Source: Candidatus Dormiibacterota bacterium
GTDB taxonomy: Bacteria > Chloroflexota > Dormibacteria > Aeolococcales > Aeolococcaceae
DNA: 33,694 nucleotides
NCBI GenBank assembly: GCA_019234035.1
Contig: JAFALX010000262.1
Location: 1 to 33,694 of the forward strand
Direction: 5' to 3'
Of the stretch, positions 6,528-19,579 are shown in pieces. The stretch's first letter is position 1, and each line of letters opens with the position of its first letter. The notes under the pieces are model-generated. The model did no database searches. It was not told where the DNA came from and saw only the letters and a list, made by a program, of their open reading frames with translations. The translations under genes and the position numbers were made by a program.

Positions 6528-8600
6528 TTACCGCCGAGCCGGCGCCCGCCGGCGACCCTGCCCTCGCGCCGAGGGCCGGCGGTTGCCCGATGACTCGAGC
6601 TCCAGCTCGGACTGCCTGCCGTCGAGCACGCCCTCGAGGCGGCGGCGCAGCTCGGTGAGGCGGTCGCGCAGCTCGGCGGCGCGCTCGAACTCGAGATCGC
6701 GCGCGGCGCGCAGCATCTCCTTCTCCACGTCCCGTGCGAGGCGGAGCGCCTCATCGGGCGGCAGCCCTGCGGACTCCTGGAACGCAACCGCGCGCAGCGA
6801 CGCCTCGTCGCGCCGCGACTCGAGCTGGTACACCGCCTTCACGATCGACTGCGGCGTGATGCCGTTGGCTTCGTTGAACGCGACCTGCAGCGCTCGGCGC
6901 CGGTCGGTCTCCGCGATGGCGCGTCGCATCGCGTCCGACATCCTGTCGGCGTACATCACCACGTGGCCGAACACGTTGCGCGCGGCGCGCCCGGTCGTCT
7001 GGATCAGCGAGCGGTAGCCGCGGAGGTAGCCCTCCTTGTCGGCGTCCAGGATGGCGATGAAGGACACCTCGGGGAGGTCGAGGCCCTCGCGGAGCAGGTT
7101 GATGCCGACAAGGACGTCAAATACTCCGAGGCGCAGGTCGCGGATGATCTCCACCCGCTCCAGGGTGTCGATGTCGCTGTGCAGATAACGAACTTTGATG
7201 CCCGCCTCGCGCAGGTAGTCGGTGAGGTCCTCGGCCATCTTCTTGGTCAGCGTCGTGATCAGGCAGCGCTCGTGCCGCGAGATGCGCTGCCGCAGCTGGA
7301 CGATGAGGTCGTCGATCTGCCCTTCGGACTTCTTCACCTCGACCGTCGGATCGACCAGCCCGGTCGGACGGATGATCTGCTCCACCGCCGCGGACGCGTG
7401 CTCCTCCTCGTAGGGACCGGGCGTCGCGCTCGTGTAGATGATCTGGCCGACCATCGAATCCCATTCGGCGAACGTCAGCGGCCGGTTGTCGAGCGCGGAC
7501 GGCAGCCGGAAGCCGTACTCGACCAGGGGGATCTTGCGGGCGCGGTCACCCTTGTACATGCCATCGATCTGCGGCACCGCGACGTGCGACTCATCCACGA
7601 CGATCAGCGCGTCGCCGGGCAGGAAGTCCAGCAGGCAGAACGGACGCTGCCCCTCGGCGCGCGCGGTGAGGTGCCGTGAGTAGTTCTCGATGCCGGCGCA
7701 CGTGCCGGTCTCGCGCATCATCTCCATGTCGAAGTTGGTGCGCTGCCGCAGGCGCTGCGCCTCCAGCAGGCGGCCGCGCAGCTCGAGCTGCCCCACACGC
7801 TCGTTGAGCTCGTTCTCGATGAGCTCCAACGCCGTCTTCATCTGCTCGGCCGGCGTCACGTAGTGCGATGCGGGGAAGACCGTGACCTCCTCGCGCGTGG
7901 TGAGGATCTCACCGGTCAGCGGGTCGAACTCCTTGATGCTCTCGACCTCGTCGCCGTAGAACTCGATCCGCGTCGCCACCTCCTCGTACGCCGGCTGCAC
8001 GTCGACGACATCACCGCGCACGCGGAACTTGGAGCGGCCGAAGTCGATGTCGTTGCGCGAGTACTGCAGGTCGGCGAACTTCCGCAGCACGATGTCGCGC
8101 CGCCAGCGCTCGCCGGTCTTCAGCGTGATCGACTCGCCCAGGTAGTTCTCGGGTGAGCCGATGCCGTAGATGCAGGACACCGAGGCCACCACGACCACGT
8201 CGCGACGGGTGAGCAGCGCCCGTGTCGCGCTGTTGCGCAGGCGGTCGATCTCGTCGTTGCGCGTCGAGTCCTTCTCGATGTACGTGTCGGTGCGCGCGAT
8301 GTACGCCTCCGGCTGGTAGAAGTCGTAGTAGGAGACGAAGTACTCCACCGCGTTCTTCGGGAAGAACTCGCGGAACTCCGCCCAGAGCTGCGCCGCGAGC
8401 GTCTTGTTCGGCGACAGGATCAGCGTGGGCCGCTGCTGCGCCGCGATGACGTTCGCGACCGTGTACGTCTTGCCCGAGCCGGTGACCCCGAGGAGGATCT
8501 GCTCGCGAAGCCCGTCGCCGATGCCGGCATTGAGCCGCTCGATGGCCCGCGGCTGGTCGCCCGCCGGCGCGAACGGCGCTACGAGATCAAAGTCGGCCAC
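6528..8600 (-). CDS. uvrB: Excinuclease ABC subunit B
   Basis: 690 aa with a GTG start. Motifs [19 protein letters not shown] and DESH, helicase motifs, and the C-terminal UVR domain ([12 protein letters not shown]). Confidence 0.97.
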
Positions 8601-9670: not shown

Positions 9671-10494
9671 TACCGCTGATCGTGCGGGCAGTACACGGTG
9701 GTGCGGCCGCCGATGACCGTCTTCTTCAACGTCGTGCCGCAGCGAAAGCAGGGCTGCCCGCCGCGTCCGTACACCTGCAGCACCTCCTGGTGGTTGCCGC
9801 GCGCGTTCCAGACGTCGCGATAGTCGTCGACGCTGCTGCCGCGGTTGACGATGGCGCTCAGCAGCGTCGCGCGTATCGCGCTCTGGAGCGCGGTCATCTG
9901 CGCGCGCGTCACCCGGTTGCACCTGCGCGTCGGGCGCACACCCGCGGTGAAGCACGCCTCGTCGATGTAGATGTTGCCCAGCCCCGCGACACGGCTCTGG
10001 TCCAGCAGGGCGGCCTTGAGCGTGCGCGTGCTCGGGTGCAGCAGGCGCCAGAGCGCGTCCGGCGTGAACTCGTCCGACAATGGTTCGACGCCGAGGGCGG
10101 GCAGCGCGCGCGCCTGCTCGAGCTGCGCGCGCGAGCCGTACGCGAGACGTCCGAAGCGGCGGGTGTCGTCGAACCGCAGCTCGCGGCCGTCGTCCAGGCG
10201 GGCGCGGAGGTGCGTATGCCGGGACTCCGGCGCATCGCCGTCGCACACGAGCAGATGACCGGTCATCCCCAGGTGGACCATGAGGTCGTCGCCGCCGTCC
10301 ATCCCGAGCAGGATGAACTTGCCGCGGCGATCCACGCTCATCACGCTCTGCCCCGCGACCACCTGCCTGAACACGTCGGCGGGTGGCGTGCGCAGCACGT
10401 CGTCGCGCGCGAGCCGCACATCCTCGATGCGCCGCCCCACCAGCTCTGAACGGAGGTCGCGAGCCACCGTCTCGACCTCAGGAAGCTCGGGCAC
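9670..10494 (-). CDS. mutM: Formamidopyrimidine-DNA glycosylase (Fpg/MutM)
   Basis: GTG start followed by PELPEVE (catalytic Pro2, Glu3). H2TH region present. C-terminal finger is CFRCG...YCPHDQR, with Asp at the position of the usual fourth Cys. The 5-prime end overlaps the polA stop by 17 nt. Confidence 0.92.
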   Translation of the reverse strand: MPELPEVETVARDLRSELVGRRIEDVRLARDDVLRTPPADVFRQVVAGQSVMSVDRRGKFILLGMDGGDDLMVHLGMTGHLLVCDGDAPESRHTHLRARLDDGRELRFDDTRRFGRLAYGSRAQLEQARALPALGVEPLSDEFTPDALWRLLHPSTRTLKAALLDQSRVAGLGNIYIDEACFTAGVRPTRRCNRVTRAQMTALQSAIRATLLSAIVNRGSSVDDYRDVWNARGNHQEVLQVYGRGGQPCFRCGTTLKKTVIGGRTTVYCPHDQR

Positions 10495-13255
10495 CGACCT
10501 CCACGCCGGCGAGCACGGGCGTCATCTCGCCCCAGTTGTGGCCTATCTTGACGTCAACCTCGAGGGGCACGGCCAGCTCGATGGCGCCGGACATGGCGTC
10601 GCGTACGAGCGGTATGAGCCGGTCGACCTCATCCACCGGCGCCTCGAGCAGCAGCTCGTCGTGCACCTGCAGCAGCATCCGTGAGCGGAGGCCGGACTCG
10701 CGCAACGCCTCGTCGACGCGGATCATCGCGCGCTTCATGATGTCGGCGGCGGCGCCCTGCATCGGCATGTTCACGGCCATGCGCTCGGCGGCGCCGCGGA
10801 TCTGGCGGTTGGCGGCGCGGATGTCAGGGAGGTACCGGCGCCGGCCGGTGAACGTCTCCACCCACCCGTACTGCCGTGCGTGGTTGCGCACACCCTCGAG
10901 ATACTCCGTCACCGCCGGCACGTTCGCGAAGTACTTGTCGATGAACGTGCGTGCGTCCTCCTGGGGGATGCCGGCGCCGCGCGCGAGGCCGAAGTCGCTC
11001 AGGCCGTACACGACGCCGAAGTTGACCATCTTGGCGATGCGCCGCATGTCCGGCGTGACCGCCTCGGGCGCGACGTTGTAGACCTCGGCGGCGGTGCGGC
11101 GGTGAATGTCCTCTCGGTTGCGGAACGAGTCGATGAGCGTCGCCTCGCCGGTGACGTGCGCGAGCACGCGCAGCTCCACCTGCGAGTAATCGGCGCTGAC
11201 GAGCGTCTGCCCGGGGTCGGCATGAAATGCGCGGCGGATGCGCGCGCCCCACTCGGTGCGCACCGGAATGTTCTGCAGGTTCGGATCCGCGGACGACAGC
11301 CGTCCGGTGGTGGCGACCGCCTGGTTGAACGACGTGTGGATGCGCGAGTCCGCGGAGCATAGCAGCGGCAGCGAGTCCACGTACGTGCTCTTCAGCTTGG
11401 TCAGCTGACGCCACTCGAGGATCTGCTCGACCACCGGATGCTCGGACCGCAGCTGCTCCAGCGTGTCGGCGTCCGTGCTGCGCCCCGTCTTGATGCGCCG
11501 GCCCGGCGCCAGCCCGAGGTCGTCGTACAGCAGGCGCGCCAGCTGCTGCGTGCTGCCGGGATTGAAGGTGTAGCCGGCGACATCGTGCAGCTCGGACTCG
11601 ATCGCGGTGATGCGCTCGTGCAGCTCGCGACTGATGTCGCCGAGCAGATCGCAGTCGACCCTGATGCCGCGGATCTCCATCGCCGCGAGGATCGGCACGA
11701 GCGGGAGCTCGAGCTCGTCGTACAGGTGCCGGGCGCCGATGGTGTCCATCGCCTGCGACACCGCGCCGGCCACCGGAGCGATGACGCCTGCCCAGGCGCC
11801 GTAGTACGCCGCCAGCTCGTCCTGCGGGACCGAGGCGATGTCGCGCTTGGAGCGCCCGATGCCCAGCAGCGCCTCCTCCTCGTCGAGCTGGATGCCGCAC
11901 AGGTCGTGCGCCAGCACGGGCAGGGAGGGCACGCGCAGCCGCTGATTGCTCACATACGCGGCGAGCTGGATGTCGAACTGCAGCCCACGTACCTCGAGGC
12001 CATGCCGCGTCCACGCGAGCACCTCGCGCTTGAGGTCGTAGCCGCGCAGCGCCACCGATTCGTCCGCGAACAGCTGCGACAGGGCAGCGCGCAGGCTGCC
12101 GTCGCCGTCCAGCGGCACGTAGTACGACGCACTGCCACCGAACGGCACCAGTGCGACACCCAGCAAAACGCCGGTGCGCGCGGCACCGCCGACCGCTGTG
12201 CGCACATCCATGCCACCGGCCTCGCGAACGCGCTCGACCACGTCGGCGGCGGTGTGCGCATCCTCGACCACGATCACCTCGGTGTCGGGTCGGCGCAACC
12301 CCGGCGGCGGGGCGGCGGCTTCGCGTTCCAACGGCAGCAGCGCCTGACCGTTGCCTGCGCTGGCGACAGCCGGCGCAGGCTCGTCGTCGCGCCCCGGGAG
12401 CCGCGACAGCAGTGAGCGAAACTCGAGTCGGTCGAAGAGGTTTGTGACCTGCTGTTCGTCGTAGTGATACAGGCGCGCCGGCGCAAGGTCGAGCTGCACG
12501 TCCATGTCGGTCGCGATGGTCGCGAGGCTCTTGCTCTGCAACGCCTGCTCCTCGTGCCCTTCGAGCGCGCGGCGCACGCGGCCCTGTGGCATCGAGGGAA
12601 CCGCGGCAATGATGTCCTCGACGGTGCTGTACTGCTGCACGAGCGTCAGCGCCGTCTTCTCGCCGATGCCCGGAATGCCCGGGATGTTGTCGGACGCGTC
12701 GCCCTGCAGCGCCTTGAAATCGACGACGTGCGGCGGCTCGAACCCGTATCGCTCGCGCACCTTGTCGAGGTCGTACACGATCGTGTCGCTGAGACCGCGG
12801 CGGCTCGCGAACACGACGACGTGCTCGTTCACCAGCTGCAGCACGTCGAGATCACCTGTGAGGATGATCACGTCCAAGCCCGCTTCGGTGGCGCGGCGCG
12901 AGAGCGTGCCGATGACGTCGTCGGCCTCGAAGGTCGGCACCTCGACGATGGGAATGCCCAGCGTGGCGACGATCTCGCGACTCCAGGTGAACTGCGGCAC
13001 GAGCTCCGGCGGCGGCGGCTTGCGCTGCGCCTTGTACTCGGCGAACTCGCCGTGGCGGAACGTGCGTCCCGGCGGGTCGAAAGCCGCGATGGCGTAGTCG
13101 GGGTGGTGGTCGTTGAGCGCCTTGAACAGCATCGATGTCATACCGAACGCTGCGTTGGTCATCTCCCCGCGGCTGTTGCTCAGCGCCGGCATGGCGTGGA
13201 AAGCTCGGTAGACGAGGTTGTGCCCGTCGATGAGAAGCAATGTTTCGCGCGCCAT
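10478..13255 (-). CDS. polA: DNA polymerase I
   Basis: 925 aa. N-terminal 5-prime nuclease (LLIDGHNLVYRAFHA, GDASDNIPGIPGIGEKTA), a central exonuclease-like domain, and Pol A motifs (DYSQVELRVLAH, RRIAKMVNFGVVYG, QVHDELLLE). Confidence 0.97.
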   Translation of the reverse strand: MARETLLLIDGHNLVYRAFHAMPALSNSRGEMTNAAFGMTSMLFKALNDHHPDYAIAAFDPPGRTFRHGEFAEYKAQRKPPPPELVPQFTWSREIVATLGIPIVEVPTFEADDVIGTLSRRATEAGLDVIILTGDLDVLQLVNEHVVVFASRRGLSDTIVYDLDKVRERYGFEPPHVVDFKALQGDASDNIPGIPGIGEKTALTLVQQYSTVEDIIAAVPSMPQGRVRRALEGHEEQALQSKSLATIATDMDVQLDLAPARLYHYDEQQVTNLFDRLEFRSLLSRLPGRDDEPAPAVASAGNGQALLPLEREAAAPPPGLRRPDTEVIVVEDAHTAADVVERVREAGGMDVRTAVGGAARTGVLLGVALVPFGGSASYYVPLDGDGSLRAALSQLFADESVALRGYDLKREVLAWTRHGLEVRGLQFDIQLAAYVSNQRLRVPSLPVLAHDLCGIQLDEEEALLGIGRSKRDIASVPQDELAAYYGAWAGVIAPVAGAVSQAMDTIGARHLYDELELPLVPILAAMEIRGIRVDCDLLGDISRELHERITAIESELHDVAGYTFNPGSTQQLARLLYDDLGLAPGRRIKTGRSTDADTLEQLRSEHPVVEQILEWRQLTKLKSTYVDSLPLLCSADSRIHTSFNQAVATTGRLSSADPNLQNIPVRTEWGARIRRAFHADPGQTLVSADYSQVELRVLAHVTGEATLIDSFRNREDIHRRTAAEVYNVAPEAVTPDMRRIAKMVNFGVVYGLSDFGLARGAGIPQEDARTFIDKYFANVPAVTEYLEGVRNHARQYGWVETFTGRRRYLPDIRAANRQIRGAAERMAVNMPMQGAAADIMKRAMIRVDEALRESGLRSRMLLQVHDELLLEAPVDEVDRLIPLVRDAMSGAIELAVPLEVDVKIGHNWGEMTPVLAGVEVGARAS

Positions 13256-17084: not shown

Positions 17085-17656
17085 GCCCCTCCTTCGGCGG
17101 TGCTACTAACGGCCCCGCTGCGCTGCAACGAGTCGACCAACATGTGGCGGGCGCGGTTGAGGCGCGACTTCACCGTGCCGACCGGAATGCGCAGTGCTTC
17201 TGCGATCTCGTCGTAGCTCAGGTCGTTGATGTCGCGAAGGACCACGGGAAGGCGGAAGTCGACGGGTAGTGTCAGCAGCGCTGCGCGAACCGAGGCGGCC
17301 TGCTGGCGCGCCAGCGCGGTGGCCTCAGGCCCGAGCGCGGGATCGGGAAGCTCGATGACGTTGCCGGCCGAATCCTCGAGCGGAGACGTGGGGCGGCGAG
17401 TCGACCGACGCTGCACATCGCGCGCGCAGTTGACCGCAACGCGGAAAAGCCATGCCCGCACCGTCTTTCCGCGGAGCTCAGGAAGATGTGTGTATGCCCG
17501 CAGGAATGTTTCCTGGACGACGTCAGCCGCGTCGTGCGGTGTTCCCAACATGCGGAGCGCCATCGTGTACAGATCGTCCTGGTTGCGTGTGACGATGGCG
17601 GCGAAGGCGTCGCGGTCGCCACGACGCGCCCGCTCGAGGAGCGCCTCGTCGTCCAT
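17081..17656 (-). CDS. ECF (group 4) RNA polymerase sigma factor
   Basis: ATG 17656 (MDDEALLERARRGDRDAFAAIV...). Region 2 reads DVVQETFLRAY; region 4 reads LSYDEIAEALRIPVGTVKSRLNRAR. The track extension to 17767 is Arg-rich and not sigma-like. Confidence 0.88.
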   Translation of the reverse strand: MDDEALLERARRGDRDAFAAIVTRNQDDLYTMALRMLGTPHDAADVVQETFLRAYTHLPELRGKTVRAWLFRVAVNCARDVQRRSTRRPTSPLEDSAGNVIELPDPALGPEATALARQQAASVRAALLTLPVDFRLPVVLRDINDLSYDEIAEALRIPVGTVKSRLNRARHMLVDSLQRSGAVSSTAEGGA

Positions 17657-17662
17657 CAATTG

Positions 17663-17692
17663 AGAGTACGCGGCAGGAGCGGTATTGGTTCC
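17663..17692 (-). promoter_or_regulatory. Putative promoter of the ECF sigma operon (GGAACC ... TACTCT-N6-ATG)
   Basis: The minus strand reads GGAACCAATACCGCTCCTGCCGCGTACTCTCAATTGATG. It has an ECF-like GGAAC -35 (17688-17692) and a CGTA/TACTCT -10 region (17663-17670). The hexamer ends 6 nt before the ATG. Confidence 0.4.
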
Positions 17693-17866
17693 AGCAAGGC
17701 ACGGCTTCGAAACCTGCCGAGCACGACTCTTGTGGTCCGCATTGCCGGTTGCGACACGCCCTCGCATTGTCCGTATTTTGAGTGCCTGAGCGAACGTTTG
17801 TTTGGTAACCTTGTCGAATGGACTTACCCGCTGTGCGGTCGAAGGGTAAGCTGGGTAAGCGCGCTC

Positions 17867-17951
17867 GCGGGAGTGCTGGAACTGGTCTACAGAATGGTCT
17901 CAAACACCATCGCCGAAAGGCTTGTGGGTTCGAATCCCACCTCCCGCACCA
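17867..17951 (+). tRNA. tRNA-Leu (anticodon CAA), class II with long variable arm, CCA encoded
   Basis: Hand-folded cloverleaf. Acceptor stem GCGGGAG/CTCCCGC and a 3-bp D stem CTG/CAG with a GG-containing loop. Anticodon stem ATGGT/ACCAT with loop CTCAAAC. Variable arm of 13 nt (GCC-GAAA-GGC). T arm GTGGG-TTCGAAT-CCCAC, discriminator A, then CCA. Confidence 0.9.
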
Positions 17952-17975
17952 GCCGCTGCACGCTCACCGTGCGTC

Positions 17976-18728
17976 GTGACGCGCCCGCAGTCGCAAGTCG
18001 ACGATGTGCTTCGTCTGCGTGAGCTCGGTCTAAGCATCAATCAGATCGCGGACACCCTGGGTATTCCTCGAGGAACGGTCATAAGTTGGTTACGGCCCAA
18101 AGCGCCGCGTATGCCCAGGCTCGTCTGCTTTCGCTGCGGGGATGCGCAACTCGAGCAGCCACAGGCGTACGTCTATCTACTTGGCATTTACCTCGGTGAC
18201 GGATACCTCGTGCCCTTCCCGAGGGACGTCTGGCACTTGCGCATCTTCCAGGATGAGCGGTATCCAGGGCTGATAGCGGAATGCGATCAGGCGATCCGAG
18301 CGGTATCCCATCGCCGCGTAGGACATGTCAAGAAGATTGGCTGTGTGCAAATCAGTTGTTACTGGAAGCATTGGATACACGTGTTTCCGCAGCAGGGCCC
18401 TGGACCCAAGTGGCTCCGGCCGATTCGCATGGCGGCGTGGCAACAAACGCTGATCGAGACATACCCAGCCGAGCTCTTGAAAGGCCTGATCCACTCGGAC
18501 GGCACGCGTTTCGTCAACCCAATAACTCGTCGCTTTGCAGGTCGCGTCGTGCGGTACAGCTACCCGCGCTACATGTTCTCGAATGCTTCTGACGACATTA
18601 GGTCGTTGTTCATAGAGTCGTGCGAACGTTTGGCTGTGCGATGGACCCAGACCAACGCGCGCAACGTGGCGGTCTCCCGTTCCGCCGACGTGGCCTTCCT
18701 GGACACGTTTATCGGGCCGAAGTTCTGA
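17976..18728 (+). CDS. Free-standing HTH + double-LAGLIDADG protein (homing-endonuclease-like)
   Basis: N-terminal HTH (LRELGLSINQIADTLGIPRGTVISWL). Two LAGLIDADG motifs, YLLGIYLGDGYL and LLKGLIHSDGT, both keep the acidic Asp. GC content and GC3 are visibly lower than in the neighbours. The track TTG start at 17922 lies inside the tRNA. GTG 17976 was chosen; GTG 18006 is an alternative. Confidence 0.7.
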   Translation: MTRPQSQVDDVLRLRELGLSINQIADTLGIPRGTVISWLRPKAPRMPRLVCFRCGDAQLEQPQAYVYLLGIYLGDGYLVPFPRDVWHLRIFQDERYPGLIAECDQAIRAVSHRRVGHVKKIGCVQISCYWKHWIHVFPQQGPGPKWLRPIRMAAWQQTLIETYPAELLKGLIHSDGTRFVNPITRRFAGRVVRYSYPRYMFSNASDDIRSLFIESCERLAVRWTQTNARNVAVSRSADVAFLDTFIGPKF

Positions 18729-18736
18729 GGCGGAGA

Positions 18737-19579
18737 TCAAGATGCCATCTGCATTGCGCTTGACGTCCCGGGGATCACGAGTCCCGGTATAGAGCGCGGC
18801 GCGACGGCGACCATCACCGCAAGCATCAGCAGGACCACCGTCGCAAAGGTCAGTACCGAGCGCCGCCACGGCAGTGTCTTCTCAACAGTGATGAGACCGG
18901 CGATCACCGCCATCCACACGAGACTCATCACGCCGAGCGCAAACAGCGCCGCCATGAGCGCCCAGCAGCACCCCACGCACCATGCAGCGTGACGCGCGCC
19001 CATCTCGAGCGCACCGCGCGTACCGTCCCGCCAGCTACCCAGCAGAAACCCGAGCGGGGTCCGGCACTTCGTCAGGCACGCGTTCTTGAGCGGTGTCACC
19101 TCGTACAGTGCGGCAGCGGCCAACGTCGCGGCAACAGCCCAACGTCCACCTGCACTCCAACTGAGCTGCGTCCCGAGAACGTTCTTCCCCAGCTCGAACA
19201 GTCCGTATGACGCCAGCCCAACGAGGCACCACACGACGAGGTACGACGCCGTGAACACCAGCGGTCGCACCCAGCTTCGCTGTCTGGTCATCCGCGCGTA
19301 CAGCGCGACCGTCGGAGCCACCGACGGGAACATCATCGCGGCCATCATCAAGATCCAGACGCCGACGAACCATCCCAGCGCGCCCAGTTCCGCGCCGGGA
19401 GCGGCGTCCATCCCGGCCATCTGATTCGCGGTCGCCCACCAGGCGACGCCGGCGAGCAGCAACAGCAGCACCACGAGCCCCAGGCGCGACCGAGCGGCCG
19501 CGAACGCCTCGCCCAGCCCCTCGCGACGTGTGGTGAGCTGGACGGTCGAAGTGGTCTCGCTGACCCCTACGCCGACCAC
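18737..19579 (-). CDS. DUF2182-family predicted metal-binding integral membrane protein
   Basis: 280 aa with a GTG start and multiple TM helices. Family-typical motifs are MMAAMMFPS, CLTKCRTP and HAAWCVGCCWALM. Overlaps the upstream DUF1326 gene by 13 nt. Confidence 0.75.
   Translation of the reverse strand: MVGVGVSETTSTVQLTTRREGLGEAFAAARSRLGLVVLLLLLAGVAWWATANQMAGMDAAPGAELGALGWFVGVWILMMAAMMFPSVAPTVALYARMTRQRSWVRPLVFTASYLVVWCLVGLASYGLFELGKNVLGTQLSWSAGGRWAVAATLAAAALYEVTPLKNACLTKCRTPLGFLLGSWRDGTRGALEMGARHAAWCVGCCWALMAALFALGVMSLVWMAVIAGLITVEKTLPWRRSVLTFATVVLLMLAVMVAVAPRSIPGLVIPGTSSAMQMAS

Follow-up and report, generated by a model that had tools for sequence, protein, structure and literature searches.

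A family of putative LAGLIDADG homing endonucleases encoded beside tRNA-Leu genes

We analyzed a 33,694-nt stretch of DNA from a Candidatus Dormiibacterota bacterium (contig JAFALX010000262.1, assembly GCA_019234035.1; hereafter, the window) and focused on a gene that directly follows a tRNA-Leu(CAA) gene. A preliminary description of the window had offered two identities for this gene: a selfish, free-standing homing endonuclease that uses the tRNA flank as a safe harbor or target, or a domesticated regulator with a LAGLIDADG fold. On balance, we favor the first of these, with the tRNA as the target and not only as a safe harbor: the gene probably encodes a free-standing homing endonuclease whose targets are tRNA-Leu genes, and a resistant tRNA allele would be linked to it. 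The observations that bear on this reading are the fold of the protein, its invariant acidic residues, the linkage of its relatives to tRNA-Leu genes, the haplotype structure of the locus in Streptomyces, and the presence of truncated tRNA-Leu genes in phages. From these we infer that the protein would cut DNA within a tRNA-Leu gene and that the linked tRNA allele would be immune.

Linkage of the family to tRNA-Leu genes

The window protein has at least 764 homologs at 90% clustering, and 1,075 clusters match it at E ≤ 1e-30 in a library clustered at 50% identity. Members are named "helix-turn-helix domain-containing protein," "transcriptional regulator," or "hypothetical protein" in RefSeq. 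A scan of one genome per species returned at least 583 loci, of which we analyzed the best 80. These span Streptomyces, Actinomadura and its relatives, Acidimicrobiia, Solirubrobacterales/Thermoleophilia, and Chloroflexota. In all 80, a tRNA-Leu gene lies 0–204 nt from the family gene. By chance, adjacency to one of the ~6 tRNA-Leu genes in a genome of several Mb would be expected at a frequency on the order of 1e-3 per locus. The Streptomyces loci represent a single orthologous locus and are not independent, but the number of independent arrangements is nonetheless at least six to eight.

The position of the gene relative to the tRNA is not fixed. We found four geometries: the tRNA lies upstream on the same strand in most loci, and the others have it downstream on the same strand, convergent, or divergent. 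At several convergent loci, the stop codon is 0–9 nt from the 3′ end of the tRNA. Geometry follows the protein clade, yet it also switches. Most of the linked tRNAs have the anticodon CAA; two Solirubrobacterales/Thermoleophilia clades differ, one with CAG and the other with TAG. Chloroflexota members, which lack the helix-turn-helix (HTH) domain described below, start directly behind the tRNA. No intron was found in any of the linked tRNAs. In nearly every locus examined, the gene had a lower GC content than its flanks, and this difference is therefore a family trait. Among class II tRNA-Leu genes (those with a long variable arm) that adjoin the gene, we counted 25 D-stem variants, and about one third of these genes lack G10.

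A role in a known defense system was considered and rejected, since no PADLOC family matches the window protein and no PHROG family matches it over its full length.

IMG/VR yielded 19 more distant relatives (26–36% identity), which lie on low-GC contigs together with tRNA arrays. A tRNA-Leu with the anticodon TAA, CAA, or TAG directly flanks, or lies within, about 16 of these genes. The exceptions are L193–L195, which adjoin tRNA-Met, and L185. Transfer-messenger RNA (tmRNA) genes are also present in some of the arrays (L187, 2165–2529; L188, 3421–3859; L198, 1597–1947).

Several of the phage genes lie within the remains of a tRNA gene. In L183, L184, and L186, the first 23–25 nt of a class II tRNA-Leu (...GTGGCGGAATTGGTAGAC) stand before the gene. 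The break falls at the same point in all three, at about nt 23/24, within the 3′ D-stem strand. In L184, a matching T arm and acceptor strand begin at the stop codon of the gene. Local alignments of these fragments gave 18/18 and 19/22 identical positions in L184 and 24/25 in L186. The cassettes in L183, L184, L186, and L189 also contain a complete class I (short-arm) tRNA-Leu. It lies in frame inside the open reading frame (ORF) in L183 (5127–5201, TAA) and L184 (5124–5197, CAA), where it encodes the linker that joins the HTH to the LAGLIDADG core; in L186 and L189, a class I tRNA-Leu(CAA) is located at or just past the stop codon.

The L186 contig is informative as to what might be recognized. 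Its TAA, CAG, TAG, and AAG isoacceptors are all class II; only the CAA isoacceptor, which adjoins the gene and the broken class II remnant, is class I. As the intact class II tRNA-Leu(TAA) of this contig shares 24/25 nt with the remnant, the D arm would be only part of the target, and recognition would also need to reach into the anticodon arm. When we compared the 86 tRNAs of the viral loci with the class I tRNA-Leu of Streptomyces (type I; see below), the best match was the class I tRNA-Leu(CAA) of L186, at 77–81% identity. Other class I tRNA-Leu genes were 69–72% identical, with a background of ≤68%. L184 carries further class I tRNA-Leu genes away from the gene (1924–1996, TAA; 7887–7962, TAG; 9859–9932, TAG), together with one class II tRNA-Leu (AAG). 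Class I tRNA-Leu is therefore a broader phage phenomenon.

Cassette haplotypes at a single Streptomyces locus

In Streptomyces, the gene occupies one syntenic locus, in the order branched-chain amino-acid ATP-binding cassette (ABC) transporter, ANTAR response regulator, tRNA(CAA), gene, and pyruvate kinase (pyk). We sampled this locus through the ANTAR protein and not through the gene itself, which gave 40 loci. The gene was present in 39, including two truncated copies (L161 and L175). The remaining locus, that of S. clavuligerus (CM000913.1; L212, 2781–3000), is an empty site: the 220 nt between pyk and the ANTAR gene hold a class I tRNA-Leu(CAA) and a GC-rich hairpin, without the family gene.

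The tRNA-Leu(CAA) at this locus belongs either to class II (84–87 nt) or to class I, which has a short variable loop (74–77 nt). In S. coelicolor, a type I tRNA-Leu(CAA) is leucylated by ScoLeuRS; some Streptomyces lack it (Fan et al., 2019; PMC6614811). This type I tRNA appears to be of the same kind as the class I tRNA that adjoins the gene in most Streptomyces loci. Its origin was not explained in that study, which does not mention the neighboring gene. In our comparison, a single locus holds type I in some strains and class II in others, tRNA and LAGLIDADG gene alleles co-segregate, and the phage counterparts of type I lie within cassettes of the same gene. The alternation extends to strains with identical ANTAR proteins (L170–L179 and L202–L211, tRNA at ~2812–2906).

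Alignment revealed that class I and class II loci differ only in a ~150-bp cassette around the tRNA, with homologous sequence on both sides. A conserved terminator-like hairpin, AAGCGGATGTCCACGTTCTCGTGAACATCCGCTTTTT, lies between the tRNA and the gene in loci of both classes. A short direct repeat, CCTTCGATTC, lies on either side of the class I tRNA, in the leader (...AACCTTCGATTCG) and in the trailer (CTTTTCCTTCGATTCCAAGG), as seen in L031, L034, L075, and further class I loci of Streptomyces (columns 100–235 of alignment A2). We also searched for remnants of a class II tRNA around the class I tRNA of Streptomyces and rejected this idea, as the local alignment scores were within the range of shuffled sequences.

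To either side of the cassette, strains can be nearly identical. Among loci that share an identical ANTAR protein and ~99% identical flanks, we found three (P0128 group) or five (P0194 group) tRNA alleles, each of which comes with a matching variant of the gene. Between these haplotypes, the DNA of the ~1-kb cassette is 37–75% identical. Its edges are sharp: one coincides with the stop codon of pyk and the other lies upstream of the ANTAR gene. Mosaic breakpoints occur within the family gene. For pairs of haplotypes, the synonymous divergence (dS) of the gene was 0.45–1.2 versus 0.008–0.05 for pyk, and the encoded proteins were 54–75% identical. In near-isogenic pairs, the median protein identity was 99.6% when the tRNA allele was the same and 74% when it differed. 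In total, 82 loci yielded 39 tRNA-Leu(CAA) alleles. Proper cloverleaves are kept, since in many alleles the changes in the D, anticodon, and T stems compensate each other. In Streptomyces, this tRNA-Leu(CAA) locus is a recombination hot spot, which is relevant to strain typing and genome engineering.

The gene is under purifying selection. Its ratio of nonsynonymous to synonymous divergence (dN/dS) is ~0.31; the same rough method gave 0.20 for pyk. Variation within the genus falls mainly in the HTH, in the linker, and in the β sheets of the N-terminal LAGLIDADG domain, while the LAGLIDADG helices, the interdomain linker, and the sheet of the C-terminal domain are conserved. This pattern would fit one variable and one constant half-site, although it is confounded by linkage, as the N-terminal half adjoins the tRNA.

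Protein fold and possible modes of action

The gene and its surroundings in the window have the following features:

17867–17951, forward strand: tRNA-Leu(CAA), class II with a long variable arm, CCA encoded (ARAGORN; Rfam tRNA, 53.8 bits)
17952–17975, forward strand: 24-nt spacer from the CCA end of the tRNA to the start codon (sequence and site scan)
17976–18728, forward strand: coding sequence (CDS), 250 amino acids, GTG start, predicted HTH and monomeric double-LAGLIDADG protein (starts of homologs, AlphaFold2 [AF2] model, Foldseek)
17988–18092, forward strand: N-terminal three-helix HTH, residues 5–39 (AF2 helices 5–16, 21–28, and 32–39)
18126–18137, forward strand: CxxC (C51, C54) in the variable linker between the HTH and the LAGLIDADG core (conservation list)
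18159–18704, forward strand: region of the CDS assigned from DSSP on the AF2 model, Foldseek matches in the PDB, and conservation
18174–18209, forward strand: LAGLIDADG motif 1, YLLGIYLGDGYL, residues 67–78, with the D75 codon at 18198–18200 (conservation, profile alignment)
18474–18506, forward strand: LAGLIDADG motif 2, LLKGLIHSDGT, residues 167–177, with the D175 codon at 18498–18500 (conservation, profile match)

The ORF is open from 17922, and its stop codon ends at 18728. We placed the start at the GTG at 17976 because homologs begin with M-T-R/H/W-P at that position.

The preliminary description had read the protein as an N-terminal HTH followed by two LAGLIDADG motifs that keep their Asp residues, and this agrees with the predicted structure. 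The AF2 model has a mean predicted local distance difference test (pLDDT) score of 93.9. In the PDB, Foldseek matched the model almost exclusively to LAGLIDADG enzymes, with I-Tsp061I first (E = 1e-9), followed by I-AniI, bI3 maturase, I-DmoI/E-DreI, I-SceI, I-OnuI, and PI-SceI; the probability was 1.00 for I-Tsp061I, I-AniI, I-DmoI, I-SceI, and I-OnuI. WhiA appeared lower down. Against BFVD, Foldseek found phage LAGLIDADG endonucleases and the endonuclease domains of inteins. The fold was assigned from the model and Foldseek, with a family alignment, as searches with the single sequence were too weak: phmmer of the window protein against the PDB returned weak HTH matches only. By this assignment, the window protein is predicted to be an N-terminal HTH joined to a monomeric double-LAGLIDADG fold in which both motif Asp residues are kept.

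In family-level searches, the Pfam HTH_23 domain matches 41 of 45 homologs (for the window protein alone, E = 1.4e-4, under the gathering score), and LAGLIDADG_3 (PF14528) matches 13 of the 45 at E ≤ 0.01, with a best value of 3e-6. A profile of the family matches the HTH domains of IS21 transposase and resolvase in the PDB and, with marginal E values, I-AniI (E = 0.003), I-HjeMI, bI3 maturase, I-DmoI, and I-Tsp061I. D75 and D175 are invariant in the 45 homologs, and the motifs around them, YLLGxYLGDG and GLIHSDG, are nearly so. In the profile alignment, D75 aligns with the motif-1 Asp of I-AniI; D175 lies opposite the motif-2 Glu, in a stretch of the alignment that is not significant by itself. 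The stretch 168–229 of the profile matches I-Tsp061I (2dch). C51 and C54 of the CxxC are also nearly invariant, as are C123 and H132 of domain 1, and together these residues may form a structural metal site.

We propose that the enzyme would recognize and cut a tRNA-Leu gene, which is both essential and conserved, most likely at a site that runs from the 3′ side of the D stem into the isoacceptor-specific anticodon arm. Repair of the break would use as its template a chromosome or phage with the endonuclease gene and would co-convert a ~1-kb cassette consisting of this gene and the neighboring tRNA-Leu allele. The tightly linked allele would be functional but resistant to cutting, either as a class II tRNA with compensatory stem changes or as a short-arm class I tRNA. 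Homing of this kind would account for the variable geometry, the jumps between isoacceptors, inversion of the tRNA and gene as a unit, and ancient haplotypes in isogenic backgrounds, as well as for occasional decay or loss of the gene, its atypical composition, and the broken tRNA genes of phages. Indirect but mutually consistent signs that the cassette may be mobile are the divergent haplotypes, the S. clavuligerus empty site, the truncated phage tRNA-Leu genes, and the inversion of a tRNA-gene unit described below.

By analogy, the family most plausibly works like SegB of phage T4, a free-standing homing endonuclease encoded in a tRNA cluster that recognizes the tRNA T-psi-C motif and drives the inheritance of the surrounding tRNA genes (PMC2330249). 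In both cases, a free-standing endonuclease gene lies among or next to tRNA genes; for SegB, the sequence of a tRNA gene is the target and flanking tRNA genes are co-converted. The window protein is not a member of the SegB family, since its predicted fold is LAGLIDADG and not GIY-YIG. SegB acts on the generic T-psi-C motif, whereas the window family is specific for tRNA-Leu neighbors, is mostly chromosomal (Actinomycetota, Chloroflexota, and Dormibacterota), and is paired with alternative tRNA alleles that include class I. It resembles monomeric LAGLIDADG homing endonucleases such as I-Tsp061I, I-DmoI, I-AniI, I-SceI, and I-OnuI in having two LAGLIDADG helices, each with a terminal acidic residue, and a core of ~190 amino acids. 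Unlike these enzymes, it is encoded outside any group I intron, archaeal intron, or intein, always adjoins tRNA-Leu, and has an additional N-terminal HTH and a CxxC linker; its sequence similarity to them is also low enough for the window protein to miss every Pfam LAGLIDADG model. Neither the LAGLIDADG fold nor the concept of free-standing endonuclease genes that lie among tRNA genes is new. In the literature, which we covered incompletely, we found no account of a LAGLIDADG lineage that has an HTH at its N terminus and is specific for the neighborhood of tRNA-Leu genes, and neither its predominance in bacterial chromosomes nor its pairing with alternative tRNA alleles, type I tRNA-Leu among them, was described in the papers we found.

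If homing is the correct reading, the homing endonucleases of phage tRNA regions would have an equivalent in bacterial chromosomes, built on a LAGLIDADG scaffold and directed at one tRNA family. This reading would also provide a function-level hypothesis for >1,000 sequence clusters labeled "helix-turn-helix domain-containing protein" in thousands of actinobacterial genomes. The natural pairs of enzyme and tRNA alleles are a possible resource for studying the evolution of LAGLIDADG specificity and for meganuclease engineering.

A further proposal, which we advance tentatively, is that the type I tRNA-Leu of Streptomyces and the class I tRNA-Leu of large phages arose or spread through an arms race, as cleavage-resistant replacements borne on the cassette. 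If so, a cassette that destroys or replaces the canonical class II tRNA-Leu gene also brings the substitute for it, and the extreme allelic diversity of the Streptomyces tRNA-Leu(CAA) is the footprint of continuing target escape and re-targeting. This would offer a testable explanation for the puzzle that type I tRNA-Leu(CAA) occurs in only some Streptomyces when nearly all other bacterial tRNA-Leu are type II (PMC6614811).

Several results weigh against homing. The gene is near fixation in Streptomyces and is found at the same locus in all four Dormibacterota-like relatives of the window. Near fixation and purifying selection would fit a host function equally well, since a purely selfish endonuclease at fixation should decay. 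The divergence of haplotypes could reflect balancing selection on the tRNA, for example by tRNA-cleaving toxins or defense systems. Beside the bacterial members we found no tRNA fragments; most of these genes adjoin an intact tRNA. The comparison of D stems between gene-adjacent and non-adjacent tRNA-Leu genes had only 17 controls, most of them from phages. Although the tRNA-Leu(CAG) of Solirubrobacterales has a mean pairwise identity of 80% versus 94% for tRNA-Glu(CTC), this control for tRNA diversity was mixed in the TAG/CAA group of the same order and thus clear in only one of two groups. The family was not found among isolated phages (INPHARED) or plasmids (PLSDB), within the sensitivity of tblastn, and IMG/VR was the sole source of the distant relatives. 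Finally, the window protein alone had no match to a LAGLIDADG hidden Markov model (HMM) in Pfam or NCBIfam and only weak HTH matches.

Another possibility is an active endonuclease that is retained for a benefit to its carrier and not only to itself. By promoting the replacement, amplification, or diversification of tRNA-Leu genes, it could help the host or phage to escape tRNA-targeting toxins or defense nucleases, with class I tRNA-Leu as a decoy-resistant variant that lacks the long variable arm. There is a precedent in phages, where SegB-driven amplification of tRNA-Tyr overcomes Septu, which cleaves the tRNA variable loop, and where genes of the SegB family are often associated with tRNAs (PMC13096335). 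The several class I tRNA-Leu isoacceptors that L184 carries at a distance from the gene would fit such a benefit, as would tRNA alleles that are hypervariable yet structurally sound and a gene that persists under purifying selection. However, PADLOC gave no match to known defense or anti-defense families, no locus had an amplified or tandemly duplicated tRNA, and nothing in our data indicates that nucleases attack tRNA-Leu(CAA) in these hosts. We consider carrier benefit unlikely as the main explanation, although it overlaps with homing and the two are not mutually exclusive.

A domesticated host regulator is similarly improbable in our judgment. Such a protein, with a LAGLIDADG fold, would use its HTH and β-sheet surfaces to bind DNA without cutting it, as WhiA does, and might regulate the adjacent tRNA-Leu gene or its own operon. 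Its presence in 39 of 40 Streptomyces loci, all at one syntenic core position, the position kept in the window's lineage, the dN/dS of ~0.31, the HTH, the structural match to WhiA, and the RefSeq name "transcriptional regulator" for some members are what a regulator would lead one to expect. WhiA (DUF199) is also a bacterial chromosomal protein that combines a double LAGLIDADG fold with an HTH (structural matches 8dy9_I and 3hyj). However, WhiA has lost its catalytic residues (PMC3384342), and both metal-binding Asp residues are invariant in the window family, which argues against the WhiA-like reading in the preliminary description. The HTH of WhiA is C-terminal and that of the window protein is N-terminal; WhiA is encoded in a conserved operon and is not tRNA linked; and no WhiA Pfam domain was found in the window protein or its 45 homologs. 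Regulation of one promoter would leave unexplained the four gene/tRNA geometries, the three anticodons, the divergent haplotypes in near-isogenic strains, and the phage copies inside broken tRNA-Leu genes. The composition of the gene is, moreover, atypical everywhere.

That the protein acts on the tRNA-Leu transcript, as a maturase-like LAGLIDADG protein or a tRNA-binding factor in processing or stability, is very improbable: LAGLIDADG maturases exist, bI3 maturase is among the top structural matches, and the gene is probably co-transcribed with the tRNA in the window's lineage, but the linked tRNAs have no intron, opposite-strand arrangements are common, maturases tend to lose the catalytic residues that are invariant here, and the HTH is a DNA-binding module.

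The locus in the window and its close relatives

ARAGORN and Rfam agree that the tRNA-Leu(CAA) of the window is 85 nt long and uninterrupted, and the neighboring gene is free-standing, as previously described. The D stem of this tRNA is CUGG/ACAG (C10-G25 and U11-A24; 17876–17891), compared to the usual GCGG/ACGC. The spacer, which had been given as 25 nt, is 24 nt; the position behind tRNA-Leu(CAA) was correct. The spacer contains no Shine-Dalgarno-like purine run and no promoter-like or terminator-like site, and a scan of 17600–19000 revealed neither a sigma-70-like promoter nor an intrinsic terminator, in agreement with the earlier statement that a promoter and a Shine-Dalgarno sequence are lacking between the tRNA CCA and the GTG.

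The windowed composition bears out the reported low GC: the gene (GC content 0.586, versus a window average of 0.689) is the lowest-GC 753-nt stretch of the 33.7-kb window. Its GC content at third codon positions (GC3) is 0.697, versus 0.75–0.92 in neighboring genes. The upstream neighbors are an extracytoplasmic function (ECF) sigma/anti-sigma pair, GH18, and polA; downstream are PpoB2, DUF1326, and MDMPI. As had been noted, these neighbors include no integrase, transposase, or other recombinase, and no repeat of the tRNA 3′ end occurs in 17700–18950. Integrative elements that target tRNA genes have an integrase or recombinase and an attachment (att) repeat of the tRNA 3′ end. As the window locus has neither, we rejected an integrative element as the explanation for the gene.

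Low GC had also been taken to suggest recent acquisition, and here the relatives tell otherwise. The tRNA-Leu(CAA) locus was compared in the four closest relatives (L199, L200, L201, and L085), as the preliminary description had proposed. All four carry the gene at tRNA-Leu(CAA), as in the window, with spacers of 10–14 nt, and the closest proteins are 55–60% identical to the window protein. L201, a "Candidatus Dormibacteraeota" metagenome-assembled genome (GCA_036378495.1), matches the window in gene order (anti-sigma, sigma, tRNA-Leu[CAA], gene, PpoB2, DUF1326, and MDMPI). Its flanking proteins are 73–88% identical to those of the window, versus 55% for the gene product. In L200 and L199, the tRNA is likewise followed by the gene, after 10–14 nt. 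In L085, the tRNA-gene unit is inverted relative to the sigma gene, compared to L200, L201, and the window. The GC content of the gene is 0.58–0.62 in all four relatives, against 0.67–0.71 for the rest of the contig. A recent arrival of the window copy is thus rejected. The copy is, to judge from these comparisons, an old resident that evolves faster than its neighbors, and the gene has probably long been resident at the polA-proximal tRNA-Leu(CAA) locus in this lineage.

The simplest expectation is that the gene and the tRNA are co-transcribed in the window's lineage, since the spacers are 10–24 nt and lack a promoter or terminator. The gene would plausibly be expressed by read-through from the tRNA, and processing of the tRNA 3′ end would leave a nearly leaderless mRNA. 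Such an arrangement is not general, as the Streptomyces members have the conserved terminator-like hairpin between tRNA and gene.

We also searched the window's lineage for an empty site. L082 (1–95) and L085 (990–1060) belong to near-identical metagenome contigs, and their similarity is lost exactly at the edge of an SRPBCC gene that is proximal to the family gene; L082 ends 95 nt further on. Several of the related contigs L081–L084 also end within a few hundred nt of this edge. These contig breaks suggest that strain-level variation at the edge of the gene interrupts the assemblies.

A second, unrelated LAGLIDADG element is present in the same lineage. In L200, the gene for the DNA polymerase III alpha subunit (1,660-amino-acid product) contains an intein at 11764–12681 with its own LAGLIDADG_3 domain.

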